From a virus (Duplodnaviria; Heunggongvirae; Uroviricota; Caudoviricetes), in the IMG/VR virus record IMGVR_UViG_2534681998_000004: DNA of 4,386 nucleotides; one strand, given 5' to 3'. A program made the translations under genes and the position numbers. Below are positions 1 through 4,304 of the stretch, piece by piece. The notes beneath the pieces are model-generated. The model ran no database searches. It saw only the letters and a program-made list of their open reading frames with translations, and was not told the origin of the DNA. The number at the start of each line of letters is the position of its first letter. Position 1 is the stretch's first letter.

Positions 1-1
1 T

Positions 2-478
2 GCACAGATTGGCGCGATGACTGAACAGCAAATCCGGCAGGTCTGCCGTCAGTGCATGGACCGCTGCCGGGCGGGTGAAACGTGGCCTCCGGACCTGGCT
101 GAGTTTGTGGCGTTGATTTCGGAGAGCGGGGCAAATCCATTTGGCCTGACGGTGGATGCCGTGATGGAGGAGTACCGTCGCTGGAGGAATGAATCCTGGC
201 GGTACGACGGGAGTGATAAATACCCGTGGCCACAGCCGGTGCTGTACCACATTTGCCTCGAGATGCGTGACAGAGGGATTGAGCGGCAGATGACGGAAGG
301 TGAGTTAAAACGACTTGCAGAACGGCAACTGACGAAATGGGCAAAGCAAGTTGGTAACGGGATGAGTATTCCCCCGATCCGGAGACAACTCGCATCGCCG
401 AAGTGCCCGCAAGGGCCAACGCCAATTGAATTACTGAAACAGGAATACGAGCGCCGGAAGGCGGCTGGTTTTGTTTGA
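2..478 (+). CDS. Replication protein P-like protein (lambda P C-terminal-domain homolog); probably 5'-partial, reading frame is open to the window edge (alternative: complete 153-aa protein from ATG 17)
   Basis: Frame is open from position 2 with no upstream stop in the window; stop TGA at 476-478. From memory of lambda P, the product shares motifs with its C-terminal half (PPDLAEFVAL vs PSPGQFVAW; YPW; LT-x-GEL-x-R-x-AE vs LTDAELRRKAADEL; IPP vs IPEP). Not confirmed by search. Confidence 0.55.
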   Translation, partial: AQIGAMTEQQIRQVCRQCMDRCRAGETWPPDLAEFVALISESGANPFGLTVDAVMEEYRRWRNESWRYDGSDKYPWPQPVLYHICLEMRDRGIERQMTEGELKRLAERQLTKWAKQVGNGMSIPPIRRQLASPKCPQGPTPIELLKQEYERRKAAGFV

Positions 479-512
479 ATCTGAGAAACGATTTTGTCGG
501 AGGAAATTTTAA

Positions 513-1228
513 TGGAAACCGTATCTGACGCACTGAAAGCACTGAAAAGAGCCTCTTCACATGTGGTGGCAGCTCGCCTTGGAATTAGTCGTGAAGAGGC
601 TGTCAACGAACTGTGGAAACTGAAACGCCGTGGAGAAGCGGATAACAAGGGGGCGATATGGTGGCTGACTCAGGCTGGTGAAAGTGAACCGGTGTCACCG
701 GTACCGAAAGTGACGGCGCAAATGCTGACAGAGGCGATTGAACAACATGGCCCACAAACGGCGGATGAACTGGCATTGATGTTCGGAATTACCTCCCGCC
801 GGGCGAATTCATCGCTGGCAATGGCAATCAGCAAAGGGTGTCTGATTCGCGTGAATCAGGATGGTAAATTTCGTTACTGCATACCGGGCGTTGATTTACC
901 GGCAGAGCCGAAAGCAGCATCCGTAGCTGAAACGGAGGGTAAAGCCCTTCCTCAGCCAGCTGGTGTTGCGTTACCAGTCCAGGAAACGGCTGCACAGGAA
1001 GAAATTAAAACAGAAGCGGTGGAGGACATTGTGAAGTTGCAGCAATCGTTCACTGAAGCGAAAGCAGATGACCTGATTCTACCATCGCTGCATGTGGCTA
1101 ACCGCGAGCTGCGCCGGGCGAAAAGTAATGTTCAGAAGTGGGAGCGAGTCTGTGCTGCGCTACGGGAACTGAACAAACACAGGGATATTCTCCGGGATAT
1201 TACCGCCACCAGAGAGCAGCAGCGGTGA
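513..1228 (+). CDS. Hypothetical prophage protein, about 238 aa, with two N-terminal winged-helix-like segments, a Pro/Ala/Glu-rich linker and a charged C-terminal helix
   Basis: ATG at 513 preceded by GGAGGA (499-504) at 8-nt spacing; the ORF track's start at 494 is a TTG with no better RBS. Long ORF with ordinary amino-acid composition; stop TGA 1226-1228. Fold assignment is inference from sequence pattern only. Confidence 0.6.
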
Positions 1229-1542
1229 GTGGCTGGAAGAAGTGGCGCTGGGCTGAAATCCTGATACTCCGGCAGTGTGCGGGAACGATGAGAGTCGAAA
1301 GCATCGGTTATCTGATTGGCCGTAGTGAGTCAGCCGTCAGGACGAAAGCGCGGGAACTGGGTATCAGCATGATGTTACGGGGTGATTATCACCAGTCAGC
1401 CAAATGTTCACAGCGTGATATTGAGCTGGCGTGGCAACTGCATCAGCGTGGTGTACCCCGACGGGAAATTGCCGAAAAGTTTGGGATGAAGTTGGGCGCA
1501 GTGGATAACTACGTTTATTTCGACAGGAGGGTTCAGGAGTGA
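1225..1542 (+). CDS. Hypothetical small DNA-binding protein with two HTH-like segments ([36 protein letters not shown] and [20 protein letters not shown])
   Basis: GTG at 1225 overlaps the upstream stop as GTGA (translational-coupling arrangement). An alternative start is ATG 1288, but that would cut off the first HTH-like segment. The track's start at 1138 would overlap the upstream gene by 91 nt. Stop TGA 1540-1542. Confidence 0.5.
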
Positions 1543-1841
1543 GGGTGAGGGTTTATATCGCCGGTCCGATGACGGGATATGAAAATTTTAACCGCGAGGC
1601 ATTTCACAAAACGGAAGAGGTGCTGAAACGGGAAGGGCATACCGTTTTAAACCCGGCAGTACTTCCGGACGGGCTGACTCAGCCACACTACATGGATATT
1701 TGCATGGCAATGCTCCGTTGCGTGGATGCGGTTTACATGCTGAAAGGCTGGCAGCAGTCGGCAGGTGCAGGGGCTGAGCTGGCACTGGAGGAGAAACCGG
1801 GCCATGCGGTGATTTTTCAGGAGGTGGGCAGTGAATATTGA
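1539..1841 (+). CDS. DUF4406-like / nucleoside 2-deoxyribosyltransferase-like small protein (100 aa)
   Basis: GTG start at 1539 overlapping the upstream stop (GTGA), with AGGAGG at 1526-1531 at 7-nt spacing. The N-terminal VYIAGPMTG...N...AF motif followed by V-NPA is, from memory, characteristic of the DUF4406 / deoxyribosyltransferase-like fold. Confidence 0.6.
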   Translation: MRVRVYIAGPMTGYENFNREAFHKTEEVLKREGHTVLNPAVLPDGLTQPHYMDICMAMLRCVDAVYMLKGWQQSAGAGAELALEEKPGHAVIFQEVGSEY

Positions 1842-2148
1842 CCCGGCGATAACGATTGATATGGCCCTGAACGCCGGCCTGGCACTTCTTGGTTATTTCT
1901 ACATTATGTTCTGCAGCGGACGATGGCTGTCACTGTTGTTCATGAAAAAATGGAATAAACGCCGTAAGCAGGAGCAACGCCAGAAGGCAATGGATGCATT
2001 TTTCGAAGCCTTCGGAATTGACGGCATGGAACCAGGGGATCCAGCTCGCGCAATCAGCAGAGGGGGTGTAGTAATCCTTGTATATCGGAGTGAAGAGAAA
2101 AATGACGATCACAAAACAACGTGTAGAAGAAATCATATCCCGCATTGA
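1831..2148 (+). CDS. Hypothetical small membrane protein (one predicted N-terminal TM helix MALNAGLALLGYFYIMFCSGRWLSLLF, then a basic and charged tail)
   Basis: GTG start at 1831 with AGGAGG at 1819-1824 at 6-nt spacing; overlaps the upstream gene's 3' end by 11 nt. The C-terminal extent is uncertain because the next gene may start at 2102. Confidence 0.45.
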   Translation: MNIDPAITIDMALNAGLALLGYFYIMFCSGRWLSLLFMKKWNKRRKQEQRQKAMDAFFEAFGIDGMEPGDPARAISRGGVVILVYRSEEKNDDHKTTCRRNHIPH

Positions 2149-2419
2149 AATGTATGGACATGGTGCAGGGTATATCGCAGACGAGGTTAATGATCTGGCT
2201 ATACTGGCGCTGAATTTATCAAATATCGCGAACCTGAAGCGATACGAGCTTGATATGGGAGGTTGCGACTCGTGCGGTCAGGATTGTGGCGCTGATATGA
2301 CTGAAGATCCTGATGGTGATTATGTCCTGTTTGATGACGTGGTTAAGTTGTTTGAATTTGATACAACCACTCAAAAGTTAGAAATCCCGGCAAAGGAGGC
2401 AGCCAGTGGGCAAGATTGA
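2102..2419 (+). CDS. Hypothetical acidic protein (about 105 aa) with a Cys cluster CDSCGQDCG
   Basis: ATG at 2102 with a purine-rich stretch upstream (GGAG 2087-2090, GAAGAG 2093-2098). The track's start at 2078 is a TTG. Stop TGA 2417-2419. Product unknown. Confidence 0.45.
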   Translation: MTITKQRVEEIISRIEMYGHGAGYIADEVNDLAILALNLSNIANLKRYELDMGGCDSCGQDCGADMTEDPDGDYVLFDDVVKLFEFDTTTQKLEIPAKEAASGQD

Positions 2420-2843
2420 CTATCAGGCACTGCGTGAGGCAGCACAAAACTATCAATCGACGCTGGCGTGGTATCAGGCTACCCCGGACAGCCCAAATGC
2501 TGAACGGGATTGTGATGCGGCTCTTGCTGCGTTTAAGCGTCACATCCGTCATCGGGAAGCGGATATTATCGCTGATTTGCTGGATGGACTGGAAGAAGCA
2601 AAATCACAACTCAACGAGCAGCGTGAGTATTACGAAGGCGTTATCTCTGATGGGAGCAAGCGTATTGCTGAACTGGAAGCGCGGGAAGTTCAATTACCGA
2701 CTCGCTACGACCTTCGATATGGACACCCGATAAATGCAGATGAGCGACATGTCATGATACCTAAAGAAAATGGCAGTTGGCTTTACCTGATTGACCTAGA
2801 ACACGCATTACGCGTCGCTGGCATTCGCATCAAAGGAGAGTGA
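2406..2843 (+). CDS. Ead/Ea22-like prophage protein (145 aa), tentative
   Basis: GTG at 2406 with AAGGAGG at 2392-2398 at 7-nt spacing; overlaps the upstream gene by 14 nt. The N-terminal IDYQALREAA motif resembles, from memory, the N-termini of Ea22-like proteins of E. coli prophages. Stop TGA 2841-2843. Confidence 0.5.
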   Translation: MGKIDYQALREAAQNYQSTLAWYQATPDSPNAERDCDAALAAFKRHIRHREADIIADLLDGLEEAKSQLNEQREYYEGVISDGSKRIAELEAREVQLPTRYDLRYGHPINADERHVMIPKENGSWLYLIDLEHALRVAGIRIKGE

Positions 2844-2844
2844 G

Positions 2845-3036
2845 ATGAACGGACAAATATCAATTGTTCGACCAGGAGCATGTGACGATCGCGAAATACG
2901 AATGATTATTCGTCTGGCGATGGGGAAAACAATAACTGCTCTCATTACTCCAGAAAATCTCGCATTAGCATTAACAGGAAAGTCAGACATGCCAGTAGAG
3001 CTAAAGCTGCGAAATGTTGAGATTAAGGTGAAATAG
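2845..3036 (+). CDS. Hypothetical protein (63 aa)
   Basis: ATG at 2845 starts 1 nt after the upstream stop, with AGGAG at 2833-2837 at 7-nt spacing. Stop TAG 3034-3036. No recognisable family. Confidence 0.5.
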   Translation: MNGQISIVRPGACDDREIRMIIRLAMGKTITALITPENLALALTGKSDMPVELKLRNVEIKVK

Positions 3037-3038
3037 CT

Positions 3039-3596
3039 ATGACCACTATTACCAAAGATCGACTGCTGACAATCCAGCATTGGCGCGAAACATACGGACC
3101 GGGTAGCAACGTTGTGCTTCCAGCAGAAGAAGCGGAAGAGCTGGCACGGATTGCGCTGGCATCACTGGCAGCAGTATCGGATGAACGAGCAGCCTATGAA
3201 TTATTTATGGAGAAGCGTTTCGGAGAATCTGTAGATCGCCGCAGAGCAAAAAATGGCGATAGAGAATACATGGCATGGGATATGGCGCTTGGCTGGATTA
3301 TCTGGTGTCACCGCGCCGCCATGCTTCAGGCTGGAAACTTTCGGGAAAATAAGGGTTCGTCAACCAATAATTTTCGGATAATCTCGGAAACGTCAACCAA
3401 CTCTCCGGCAATCCCTGATGAGGTGTTGTCCGCAATCCTGAAGGTCGCCAGGCTTCGTGCAGATTTCGATGCTTCTGAAGTGGACAGGCGAGGTATCGGT
3501 AGTTGTCTGGATGAGGCCGAGCAAGAACTTATCGTTACCATTAACGAATACGCCAGTCAGATCGCAGTAGAAGCGACACAGGGGGAGAACCAATGA
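3039..3596 (+). CDS. Hypothetical prophage protein (185 aa)
   Basis: ATG at 3039 starts 2 nt after the upstream stop, with AAGGTGA at 3025-3031 at 7-nt spacing. Long ORF with balanced composition; stop TGA 3594-3596. Confidence 0.6.
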   Translation: MTTITKDRLLTIQHWRETYGPGSNVVLPAEEAEELARIALASLAAVSDERAAYELFMEKRFGESVDRRRAKNGDREYMAWDMALGWIIWCHRAAMLQAGNFRENKGSSTNNFRIISETSTNSPAIPDEVLSAILKVARLRADFDASEVDRRGIGSCLDEAEQELIVTINEYASQIAVEATQGENQ

Positions 3597-3670
3597 GCCG
3601 GCCAGATGCATTTGCAGGCGTTGCTATAGCTATTGCTTTTCTAGTATATGTTATTTGTCGGTGGGGGTAA
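3593..3670 (+). CDS. Candidate 25-aa hydrophobic peptide (MSRPDAFAGVAIAIAFLVYVICRWG), not in the ORF track
   Basis: ATG 3593 overlaps the upstream stop as ATGA; GGGGGAGA at 3581-3588 gives about 4-nt spacing; stop TAA 3668-3670. Single predicted TM-like segment. Too short for statistical support; hand-translated. Confidence 0.3.
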   Translation: MSRPDAFAGVAIAIAFLVYVICRWG

Positions 3671-3705
3671 AAACGTTCGCCGGGATTCACACCAAGGGAG
3701 GGAAT

Positions 3706-3810
3706 ATGTCGGATGATATTTCACTGGTAATGGAAGGCGCTCTGGCTGTTATTGCTGTTGTGGGTGTTTACTGCCTGGTTGTGTTTTTGATGGAGCGCCT
3801 GGGGAACTGA
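3706..3810 (+). CDS. Candidate 34-aa small membrane peptide (MSDDISLVMEGALAVIAVVGVYCLVVFLMERLGN), not in the ORF track
   Basis: ATG 3706 preceded by a strong purine-rich SD, AAGGGAGGG (3694-3702); stop TGA 3808-3810. One clear hydrophobic helix. Hand-translated. Confidence 0.4.
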   Translation: MSDDISLVMEGALAVIAVVGVYCLVVFLMERLGN

Positions 3811-3820
3811 ATTCATTCCG

Positions 3821-3836
3821 TATGGGAATTCCCATA
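3821..3836. repeat. 16-bp perfect palindrome TATGGGAATTCCCATA (possible operator or RNA stem-loop)
   Basis: Exact reverse-complement symmetry read directly from the sequence; lies between the 34-aa ORF stop and the candidate hok promoter. Confidence 0.5.
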
Positions 3837-3850
3837 TCGGGCAAAACGGT

Positions 3851-3878
3851 TTGCTGTAAAGCGAGAGTTAAGTAGAAT
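3851..3878 (+). promoter_or_regulatory. Candidate sigma70 promoter for the hok-like mRNA (-35 TTGCTG 3851-3856, 16-nt spacer, -10 TAGAAT 3873-3878)
   Basis: The -10 matches TATAAT at 5 of 6 positions, the -35 at 3 of 6. The predicted start near 3885 coincides with the 5' element that is complementary to the mRNA 3' end, giving a transcript of about 420 nt, as expected for hok-family mRNAs. Confidence 0.4.
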
Positions 3879-3881
3879 TGC

Positions 3882-3896
3882 TGCGGGTGCTTGAGG
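3882..3896 (+). promoter_or_regulatory. hok mRNA 5'-end element complementary to the 3' end (fold-back inhibition, 5' partner)
   Basis: TGCGGGTGCTTGAGG (3882-3896) pairs with CCTCAACGCACCCGCA (4259-4274) over 15 bp with one bulged nucleotide; complementarity checked by hand. Confidence 0.5.
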
Positions 3897-3930
3897 CTGT
3901 CTGCCTCGGGCATGCCACCGTAAGGCAGAC

Positions 3931-4005
3931 AGAGAAAAGCCCCAGTTAACATTACGCGTCCTGCAAGACGCTTAACATTAATCTGAGGCCCAATCTATGC
4001 TTCAC
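3931..4005 (-). ncRNA. sok: Candidate Sok-like antisense RNA (antitoxin of a type I TA system); ends approximate
   Basis: Minus-strand candidate promoter: -35 TTGCCT (+4040..4035), 17-nt spacer, -10 TAACCT (+4017..4012), predicting a start near +4004. The transcript would be antisense to the mok start codon (3997-3999) and its SD (3985-3988), as in plasmid R1 hok/sok. No canonical terminator found; a U-rich run (complement of +3931-3939) is a possible 3' end. Confidence 0.3.
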
Positions 4006-4209
4006 AAACGTAGGTTAGCCTCTTACGCGCCGAAAGGCAAGGAGAAGCAGGTTATGAAGCAGCAAAAGGCGATGTTAATCGCCCTGATCGTCATCTGTTT
4101 AACCGTCATAGTGACGGCACTGGTAACGAGGAAAGACCTCTGCGAGGTACGAATCCGAACCGGCCAGACGGAGGTCGCTGTCTTCACAGCTTACGAACCT
4201 GAGGAGTAA
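3997..4209 (+). CDS. mok: Mok-like in-frame upstream reading frame (70 aa) that contains hok; analogous to the MokC arrangement as I recall it
   Basis: ATG 3997 with GAGG at 3985-3988 at 8-nt spacing; same frame as hok and the same stop. Whether it is translated as a separate product is inferred from the hok-family paradigm. Confidence 0.5.
   Translation: MLHKRRLASYAPKGKEKQVMKQQKAMLIALIVICLTVIVTALVTRKDLCEVRIRTGQTEVAVFTAYEPEE
4054..4209 (+). CDS. hok: Hok/Gef-family type I toxin (51 aa, small membrane peptide)
   Basis: ATG 4054 with AAGGAG at 4039-4044 at 9-nt spacing; stop TAA 4207-4209. The product MKQQKAMLIALIVICLTVIVTALVTRKDLCEVRIRTGQTEVAVFTAYEPEE has the Hok signature (TM helix, then TRK-x-LCE-x-R and EVAAF/EVAVF-x-AYE). 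From memory it is very close to E. coli HokD (RelF) and HokC (Gef). Confidence 0.85.
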   Translation: MKQQKAMLIALIVICLTVIVTALVTRKDLCEVRIRTGQTEVAVFTAYEPEE

Positions 4210-4258
4210 GAGACCAGGCGGGGGAGAAATCCCTCGCCACCGCTGATGTGTCAGGCAT

Positions 4259-4274
4259 CCTCAACGCACCCGCA
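4259..4274 (+). promoter_or_regulatory. hok mRNA 3' element complementary to the 5' end (fold-back inhibition, 3' partner)
   Basis: CCTCAACGCACCCGCA is complementary to 3882-3896 and sits immediately upstream of the terminator hairpin, as expected for the 3' partner of hok mRNAs. Confidence 0.5.
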
Positions 4275-4277
4275 CTT

Positions 4278-4304
4278 AACCCGCTTCGGCGGGTTTTGTT
4301 TTTT
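4278..4304 (+). terminator. Rho-independent terminator of the hok-like transcript
   Basis: Stem AACCCGC (4278-4284), loop TTCG, stem GCGGGTT (4289-4295), followed by TTGTTTTTT (4296-4304). Confidence 0.8.

Follow-up and report, generated by a model that had tools for sequence, protein, structure and literature searches.

Two probable micro-genes for single-helix peptides upstream of hok/sok in the nin region of a lambdoid prophage

Introduction

Few temperate phages have been studied as much, or matter as much to medicine, as the Shiga toxin (Stx)-converting phages, which include 933W and VT2-Sakai. Escherichia coli encodes small single-pass inner-membrane proteins, such as KdpF, AcrZ, MgtS, and CydX, which modulate larger membrane proteins. 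Here we analyze two short open reading frames (ORFs) of 25 and 34 amino acids (aa), called ORF1 and ORF2, which lie upstream of a hok/sok type I toxin locus in a virus of the Caudoviricetes (IMG/VR record IMGVR_UViG_2534681998_000004). The whole stretch of DNA that was analyzed, 4,386 nucleotides (nt) long, is called the window; it represents the nin region, between P and Q, in a lambdoid prophage from E. coli of the Shiga-toxin type.

Both ORFs resemble KdpF, AcrZ, MgtS, and CydX in their size (25 to 35 aa), their one helix with no other domain, and a short membrane-interface motif. They differ from them in being phage-borne and in having no sequence relationship, the best match in that comparison being a sub-threshold one to KdpF (E = 0.024, 14.7 bits vs. 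a cutoff of 26.85). Hok/Gef proteins (PF01848) are likewise small one-helix peptides carried by phages and plasmids, and they are neighbors of ORF1 and ORF2. However, both ORFs lack the C-terminal domain of Hok (about 25 residues, with the motif L-C-E-V/I-R), as well as the overlapping mok-type frame, the long folded leader, and the Sok-type antisense RNA of the Hok system.

The closest described relatives are other members of the same families. ORF2 is the same gene as WP_001278460.1, ECs_5710, and XECs145 of a published ribosome-profiling study (Huecker et al. 2017; PMC5597208), in which the start was placed about 20 codons further upstream. ORF1 belongs to the same family as a 27-codon ORF between ST933Wp77 and sokW/hokW in 933W, which also occurs in VT2-Sakai, Min27, BP-4795, and P1-like plasmids. 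The two have in common an N-terminal cap, a hydrophobic core, the ending C-R-W-G/R, an ATGA start-stop overlap, and a Shine-Dalgarno (SD) site in the tail of the upstream gene. The 933W-type ORF often lies directly upstream of hok, whereas in the window an ORF2 cassette stands in between, and ORF1, with 6 nt deleted in frame, has 25 rather than 27 aa and carries R at the site of W3. This family is without a model in Pfam, NCBIfam, or PHROGs. More broadly, intergenic small-ORF families under purifying selection have been described across the Enterobacteriaceae (Fesenko et al. 2024; PMC11188072). ORF1 and ORF2 are of this general kind, being short, hydrophobic, conserved, and for the most part unannotated, although ORF1 is not strictly intergenic, as it overlaps the upstream stop codon, and neither peptide was found in the supplementary text of that study.

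Results and Discussion

Two small reading frames with conserved initiation signals

Taken as a whole, the evidence is probably best explained by ORF1 and ORF2 being two separate, genuine micro-genes belonging to the nin/ea-type accessory early region of lambdoid phages and their relatives. Their reading frames and initiation signals are conserved, both bear the mark of protein-level selection, and ribosome footprints cover an allele of ORF2. The features of the locus are listed in Table 1. A preliminary description of the window, made from its letters alone, had placed both ORFs exactly as listed there, had noted their translation signals, and had proposed small membrane peptides or, alternatively, untranslated spacer.

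Table 1. Positions of ORF1, ORF2, and neighboring features in the window
Feature	Position	Strand	Details
Upstream accessory gene, 185 aa	3039..3596	+	Mosaic EaA/DUF551-neighborhood protein; matches PHROG families of unknown function; TGA stop overlaps ORF1 start
SD site of ORF1, GGGGGAGA	3581..3588	+	Within last codons of upstream gene, 4 nt before ATG
ORF1, 25 aa, MSRPDAFAGVAIAIAFLVYVICRWG	3593..3670	+	ATG 3593, TAA 3668-3670; predicted single-transmembrane peptide
Left AAAACG direct repeat	3670..3675	.	Bounds 173-nt ORF2 cassette
SD site of ORF2, AAGGGAGGG	3694..3702	+	3 nt before ATG; AAAGGAGGG in most alleles
ORF2, 34 aa, MSDDISLVMEGALAVIAVVGVYCLVVFLMERLGN	3706..3810	+	ATG 3706, TGA 3808-3810; predicted single-transmembrane peptide
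Palindrome TATGGGAATTCCCATA	3821..3836	.	Perfect 16 bp centered on GAATTC; 22 bp (CGATATGGGAATTCCCATATCG) in most alleles; 3819-3839 in allele alignment
Right AAAACG direct repeat	3843..3848	.	Bounds 173-nt ORF2 cassette
Putative hok promoter	3851..3878	+	TTGCTG, 16-nt spacer, TAGAAT; conserved in 933W, PPompW, and Tritos; inferred, unflagged by simple promoter scan
hok mRNA leader and Sok antisense region	3885..4059	+	Rfam RF01794, 114.9 bits
mok, 70 aa	3997..4209	+	Overlaps hok
hok, 51 aa	4054..4209	+	Within mok/hok frame; profile score of mok/hok frame 81.6 bits
Terminator hairpin of hok	4278..4295

The ATG of ORF1 (3593-3595) overlaps the TGA (3594-3596) of the 185-aa gene to give ATGA. 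The predicted duplexes of the SD sites with the anti-SD sequence, at −9.4 kcal/mol for ORF1 and −11.8 kcal/mol for ORF2, are both stronger than that of hok (−8.5 kcal/mol). The hydrophobic character reported for both peptides is borne out as well: when the 72 window ORFs of 20 aa or more are ranked by their best 17-residue Kyte-Doolittle value, Hok/Mok (3.22), ORF2 (2.95), and ORF1 (2.66) come first. It is conservation and not composition by which ORF1 and ORF2 appear to exceed chance reading frames.

ORF1 belongs to an unannotated 27-aa family

Judged by its sequence, ORF1 is a shortened allele of a 27-aa family, defined in the present analysis by the pattern M-x-W-P-E/D-A-F...C-R-W-G. With its in-frame deletion and the N-terminus M-S-R-P-D-A-F, the window ORF1 falls outside the 27-codon length and the M-x-W-P-E/D-A-F cap; it is a variant by descent, with flanks and the rest of the ORF aligning at about 90% nucleotide identity. 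Its C-terminus (...AFLVYVICRWG, then the stop codon) has the hydrophobic core and C-R-W-G ending of the family, and its start has the ATGA overlap and an SD-like motif in the last codons of the upstream gene. The close homologs gathered from IMG/VR and from E. coli genomes number 123, representing 45 haplotypes, and 25 of these copies carry the window-type allele. The frame is intact in 121, in nine of which a W-to-stop change removes the last two residues. A search of close homologs for frame-disrupting changes, which the preliminary description had named as a way to refute the genes, found only one IS5 insertion, cutting one of the 123 copies, and rare homopolymer variants. The sole ORF1 indel among close copies is of 6 nt, in frame, giving 25 or 27 aa.

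The family extends well beyond these copies. Searching with the 27-aa form (tblastn) returned 99 phage records at 60 to 70% identity over the full length, and a second-clade ORF1 returned 93 phage and 180 plasmid records, the plasmids being mostly P1-like, from E. coli and Salmonella. Carriers include 933W, VT2-Sakai, VT1-Sakai, and the virulent phage Av-05. The homologs at 60 to 70% identity keep exactly 27 codons, the ATGA overlap, and the SD site in unrelated flanks. In all six phage records inspected (VT1-Sakai, Stx2a_WGPS2, Av-05, vB_EcoS-666R9, 933W, and Min27), the ORF has 27 codons, starts with ATGA over the stop codon of the upstream gene, and is unannotated. The preliminary description had called both ORFs unannotated; this holds for ORF1, which is annotated in none of the RefSeq records fetched for homologous loci, and fails for ORF2 (see below). 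A few GenBank submitters have labeled an ORF1-family protein “bacteriophage protein” or “hypothetical protein” (e.g. AOM45384.1, ASL59396.1), and no entry in a collection of 15 billion proteins matches the 25 aa exactly.

A scan with a degenerate pattern yielded 219 copies with 58 nucleotide alleles and 37 peptides, 13 of the alleles encoding one same peptide. The fourth base of the ORF, which the pattern leaves free, is A in 219/219, completing ATGA; residue 2 may be T, N, I, or S. The TGA of this ATGA directly ends the upstream reading frame in 197 copies; 17 others have a further ATG in frame, on which the overlap falls (ATGATGA), and in the remaining five a stop codon immediately precedes the ATG. 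The genes upstream fall into at least six unrelated C-terminal classes, each ending with an SD-like motif, and an SD-like tetramer lies within 16 nt upstream of the start in every one of the 219 copies.

An ORF1 pattern scan found only E. coli/Shigella copies, one mis-binned contig, and chance matches. The contig, JAJXBQ010000377.1 (L137; 1.8 kb, labeled as a Segatella copri metagenome-assembled genome), has an E. coli-type ORF1 with a 1-nt deletion at the start (1609-1686) and is probably a mis-binned enterobacterial phage fragment. PP818812.1, deposited as “Actinobacillus phage vB_Apl-pPE4,” has, at 13106-13186, an ORF1 that is 100% identical to copies of the E. coli clade and also encodes the same Hok type; its host label may be wrong, or the transfer recent. 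No ORF1 copy was found in the 2 kb inspected of the upf89.5 region of P7. A cluster look-up that grouped ORF1 with 121-aa DUF551 proteins was treated as an artefact, as those sequences do not contain the peptide.

Both frames evolve under protein-level selection

Changes were counted along a minimum spanning tree of alleles, only in the codons left free by the search pattern. In the 17 free codons of ORF1, 85 changes were synonymous and 79 non-synonymous, against an expected synonymous fraction of 0.276 (P = 5 × 10−11; ω about 0.35), and the other two sense frames had no synonymous excess (ω about 1.0 and 1.9). Replacements in ORF1 were conservative, with a mean BLOSUM62 score of +0.73 vs. −0.57 for random single-base changes. 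The 14 free codons of ORF2 had 23 synonymous and 21 non-synonymous changes, with an expected fraction of 0.296 (P = 1.3 × 10−3; ω = 0.38); replacements scored +0.38 vs. −0.45 for random changes, and no other frame did as well. Because the synonymous excess and the conservative replacements occur only in the proposed frames, both ORFs are indicated to be coding genes and not spacer, and ORF1 in particular is read as a protein-coding micro-gene. These counts replaced pooled pairwise ratios of non-synonymous to synonymous polymorphism (pN/pS) over all allele pairs, which separated the frames poorly (0.51 for the ORF1 frame and 0.58 for the +1 frame).

ORF2 is an annotated gene with published translation data

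The Prokaryotic Genome Annotation Pipeline (PGAP) annotates exactly 3706-3810 as the hypothetical protein WP_001278460.1, to which ORF2 is identical, and the exact sequence is present in the protein collection. Every homologous locus fetched annotates a 34-aa hypothetical protein at this place, other alleles being WP_001278459, 450, and 454. The Sakai allele, ECs_5710 (YP_009502606.1) of prophage Sp6, differs at 2/34 residues and is likewise flanked by ORF1 and mok/hok. ORF2 has the identity, the 34 codons, the SD site and ATG of its own, and the ending L-M-D/E-R-L-G-N of its family.

The family has two divergent types. Type A, which includes the window ORF2, has 34 aa and an ATG start and follows ORF1 in 118/126 copies; one type A allele has GTG for ATG, still a start codon. 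Type B has 29 to 30 aa, starts with GTG after AGGAGG, reads MLVLKCALAIAAVMAIYCLAVVLMDRLSD, and is about 45 to 50% identical to type A; 57 of its 58 copies are without an upstream ORF1. It is found in phages Tritos, HannyBb, Evi, and mEp460_ev081, in the first two of them at the same place upstream of hok as type A. The helix and the ending L-M-D/E-R-L are common to both types. Among close copies, the length is 34 aa in 119/123. The family is narrow: word-indexed and full HMMER profile searches of 1.8 billion representative proteins returned only this family, essentially from E. coli; the profile search for remote relatives gave just 12 cluster representatives, all of the same family including type B, and a protein scan of GTDB species representatives gave no match.

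The Sakai allele has ribosome-profiling support as XECs145 in the S2, S3, S8, and S10 Tables of the earlier study, which class it as “real” and predict an inner-membrane location with one transmembrane helix (Huecker et al. 2017; PMC5597208). In LB, the S2 Table gives a footprint value of 346 vs. an RNA value of 79 reads per kilobase per million (RPKM), with a ribosome coverage value (RCV) of 4.35 and a coverage of 0.99; in BHI, the footprint RPKM was 150 vs. 121 for RNA. With its start called too far upstream, the XECs145 entry missed the SD site and ATG equivalent to 3706.

The frames, the synonymous excess, the conservative replacements, and these footprints together support the preliminary suggestion of real small membrane-peptide genes.

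Proximity to hok/sok is recurrent and separable

ORF2, its SD site, and a palindrome occupy the 173-nt cassette between the two AAAACG repeats, which sits between ORF1 and the hok promoter. Phage 933W has a single AAAACG copy without the 173-nt segment, so that the ORF1 stop runs directly into the hokW promoter; the comparison looks like a deletion or insertion through short repeats. The palindrome is predicted to fold as a 9-bp RNA hairpin (about −20 kcal/mol, z of −2.9 to −4.8) lacking a U-tract. Some 15 nt separate it from the putative hok −35 element downstream, and PPompW phages without ORF2 retain it along with hok; it may serve as an operator, limit read-through into hok, or stabilize an mRNA end. 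At the other end of the hok transcript, 4218-4299 has a sub-threshold Rfam match to Salmonella IsrK (27.2 bits, gathering threshold 50, E = 0.005), spanning the 3′ end of the hok mRNA and the terminator.

A Hok ORF lies within 600 nt downstream in 142/160 ORF2-family copies. In 17 copies without hok, ORF2 is intact and the divergence from the others begins a few bases past its stop codon. The unbiased scan for ORF1 found hok within 750 nt downstream in 46/95 copies, 35 of these without an intervening ORF2, and no hok in 49/95. Conversely, hok is present without ORF2 in 933W and in PPompW, which lost ORF2 and keeps the palindrome and hok. Many of the hok-linked copies are near-identical Stx phages, and the counts overstate the number of independent associations. 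ORF1, ORF2, and hok are thus mosaic neighbors, each separable from the others, whose closeness is recurrent and not obligatory in either direction.

Searches for known toxins and other functions

Both ORFs have the small hydrophobic-peptide trait of type I toxins, and the preliminary description had raised additional toxins, membrane modulators, and superinfection-exclusion factors as possible roles. Profile searches of Pfam, NCBIfam, PHROGs, and PADLOC with both peptides and several homologs gave nothing above noise: PHROG matches all had E of at least 0.006, to families of unknown function, and PADLOC gave nothing significant for either peptide. ORF1, ORF2, and the type B homolog had no match to Hok/Gef (PF01848; Pfam/NCBIfam) even at E up to 10. 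In the Rfam scan, the sok model matched only 3885-4059, and no family overlapped 3593-3810. Neither ORF has an upstream overlapping mok-type frame with a start codon. The sole promoter-like site on the minus strand (3671 to 3643; TTTACC, 17 nt, TATACT), antisense to the 3′ end of ORF1, has 9/12 matches, which is the chance level, and its sequence is unconserved in the other ORF1 clade in a by-eye comparison; an antisense RNA of an undescribed kind may exist nonetheless.

The absence of Hok similarity, the lack of detectable antisense control, and the apparently free translation of ORF2 in growing cells weaken the case for a toxin role and make it appear less likely for either peptide; the high footprint density of the ORF2 allele in growing cells is an indirect argument against strong toxicity. 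No homology to known anti-phage defense or exclusion proteins was found in PADLOC, PHROG, or Pfam, a result that bears on homology and not on function. A holin or antiholin was considered and rejected, as the loci lie between P and Q, upstream of the lysis region, and the peptides have 25 and 34 aa and no charged C-terminal tail. Neither peptide has a homolog in the Rac and Qin prophages of K-12 (DLP12 and e14 lay outside this check), and hence there is no K-12 name for the genes. A literature text search for the peptide strings returned no paper, and neither did one for hokW or 933W with small ORFs.

A proposed mechanism and points against it

Each peptide would be little more than one transmembrane helix. 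We propose that ORF1 is made by stop-start coupling, in which ribosomes of the upstream gene terminate and reinitiate at an SD site in that gene's last codons. Its product would begin with a short M-x-W-P-E/D-A-F cap, continue with some 17 hydrophobic residues, and finish in C-R-W-G; a basic residue close to the C-terminus points to an N-out, C-in topology in the inner membrane. ORF2 would be translated from its own strong SD site and ATG, with a conserved part made of the helix and the ending L-M-D/E-R-L-G/S-N/D. Both peptides may insert into the inner membrane as single helices, and both genes appear to travel as small mosaic modules. Their likeliest function would be that of non-essential accessory peptides that bind or perturb a host or phage inner-membrane component. 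In our view, neither peptide belongs to the hok/sok mechanism or acts as a toxin in its own right.

Several considerations weigh against this interpretation. Membrane insertion, topology, and function are deduced from sequence alone. Direct support for translation concerns an ORF2 allele and not the window's own ORF1 allele; no ORF shorter than 93 nt was seen in the tables cited from Huecker et al. (2017; PMC5597208), so ORF1-family members (78 to 84 nt) were unassessed there, and in a strain with multi-copy prophages, profiling reads are not assignable to one copy. The allele sets came from pattern searches, which confines the selection tests to pattern-free codons, and the low diversity of ORF2 (20 distinct segments) makes its test the weaker one. 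The window ORF1 allele, with R for W3 and two residues missing, could be a weakened copy. Finally, the recurrent place beside hok (142/160 for ORF2, 46/95 for ORF1) could reflect a functional link.

Alternative explanations

That last point is the basis of the alternative in which one or both peptides are working parts of hok/sok or extra type I-like toxins, adding to killing, modulating Hok, or protecting against it. Both are small and hydrophobic, the Hok ORF lies just downstream of both divergent ORF2 types, the ORF1 association comes from an unbiased scan, and in 933W ORF1 directly abuts the hokW promoter. Nevertheless, neither matches a Hok/Gef profile or has an overlapping Rfam family or convincing antisense promoter, and the exposed strong SD site and high footprint density of ORF2 are unlike a tightly silenced toxin. 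Moreover, hok loci lacking ORF2 or ORF1 are known, as are copies of each ORF with no hok, and linked copies, often from near-identical Stx phages, are not independent, which leaves this alternative unlikely in our view. Slightly more doubtful still is a broader conjecture that the order ORF1-(ORF2)-hok/sok reflects function, with the micro-peptide(s) acting together with Hok in the inner membrane to tune its insertion, its toxicity, or a Hok-linked exclusion. A less likely variant of this conjecture is a fusion of the two peptides, in which ribosomes would undergo a programmed −1 slip where ORF1 ends, on U GGG GGU AA, and continue into ORF2 to give a two-helix protein of 70 to 74 aa. Relative to ORF1, ORF2 is indeed read in the −1 frame, which stays open from ahead of ORF1, across the gap, as far as 3810; among database entries, P0037 and P0038 (74 aa) are identical in sequence to the slip product and P0034 is a similar fusion; and two of the three variable gap sites are synonymous in the ORF2 frame, too few for significance. 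Yet homopolymer variants (G5 to G6, T6 to T7) or assembly errors simply explain the three fusions, ORF2 keeps a conserved strong SD site and ATG of its own, ORF1 is widespread without ORF2, and nearly all type B ORF2 copies lack ORF1. The G-run is forced by the conserved W-G codons of every family member, and no stimulatory RNA structure was seen, though none was specifically looked for. We regard such a slip as highly improbable.

The remaining alternatives deny that one or both peptides are encoded at all. An untranslated spacer between the last nin-region gene and hok, with chance ORFs in DNA conserved for other reasons, such as a recent shared ancestry or regulatory sites, would fit the 35-nt gap between the ORFs, which in type A copies is as conserved as the ORFs themselves (only three variable sites), the frequency with which short hydrophobic ORFs arise by chance, and the failure of any curated family to match either peptide. 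It does not account for frame-specific synonymous excess and conservative replacements, for an ORF1 indel that is in frame, for ribosome footprints on the ORF2 allele, or for diverged ORF1 homologs (60 to 70%) that hold 27 codons, ATGA, and the SD site in unrelated contexts. The spacer explanation is largely refuted by these results, and we give it very little weight, if marginally more than the slip. Least credible of all is that the conserved signal stems from an opposite-strand gene overlapping ORF1, such as a 49-aa minus-strand ORF at 3541-3690. The antisense frame that shares third codon positions with ORF1 does have a synonymous excess (86/164, P = 3 × 10−13) and a stop codon in only 3/58 alleles, but this excess is the expected shadow of the sense gene, and replacements in that frame are no more conservative than random (−0.50 vs. 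−0.39). Its open-frame limits also vary widely among 125 contexts, with no conserved start codon or SD site.

Genomic setting and the upstream gene

Positions 3400-3900 of the window are 100% identical to many O157:H7, O26, and related chromosomes. The gene order around the locus in one matching genome is cI/cro, replication genes, small hypothetical genes, hokD, DUF968, rusA, and Q. The preliminary description had taken the gene upstream of ORF1 for the last phage gene, which is incorrect: DUF968, rusA, and Q lie downstream, and the locus is inside the nin region. The 251 bases around ORF1 and ORF2 are present in 674/5426 complete E. coli genomes (about 12%), at up to five copies per genome.

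The window itself is mosaic, since positions 1-3414 are 99.7% identical to Sakai prophage Sp6 and the remainder is nearer another prophage type. The 185-aa gene is a hybrid: the 5′ portion matches ECs_1518 of Sakai, the 3′ portion matches WP_000137954.1, which comes from a different prophage type, and a comparison of 3415-3606 with Sakai Sp6 (L344) and with L001 places a recombination joint inside it. In the part of the window closest to Sp6, a 105-aa ORF at 1831-2148 has a hydrophobic N-terminal segment (MNIDPAITIDMALNAGLALLGYFYIMFCSG...) and may be another small nin-region membrane protein.

Conclusions

ORF2 was annotated already, and evidence for the translation of its Sakai allele had been published; ORF1 belongs to an uncurated and mostly unannotated family, widespread in well-studied phages. 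A conserved 27-codon gene beside hok/sok has gone unrecorded in the checked RefSeq annotation for Sakai and 933W, and no Pfam, NCBIfam, or PHROG model describes it. With ORF1 recognized and the start of the ORF2 family set right, the gene map of this region is corrected for about 12% of complete E. coli genomes. ORF1 also offers a clean example of stop-start coupling that is conserved while the upstream gene is swapped. As small, hydrophobic, conserved ORFs are a recognized class in the Enterobacteriaceae, we regard the result as a useful annotation correction and a testable lead, not as a surprise. It provides two short, easily synthesized peptides for testing membrane physiology, phage exclusion, and Hok activity. 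If they have no phenotype, the annotation fix would still be useful, without a new biological principle. If the order of ORF1, ORF2, and hok/sok does reflect function, prophage hok loci would be three- or four-component systems.

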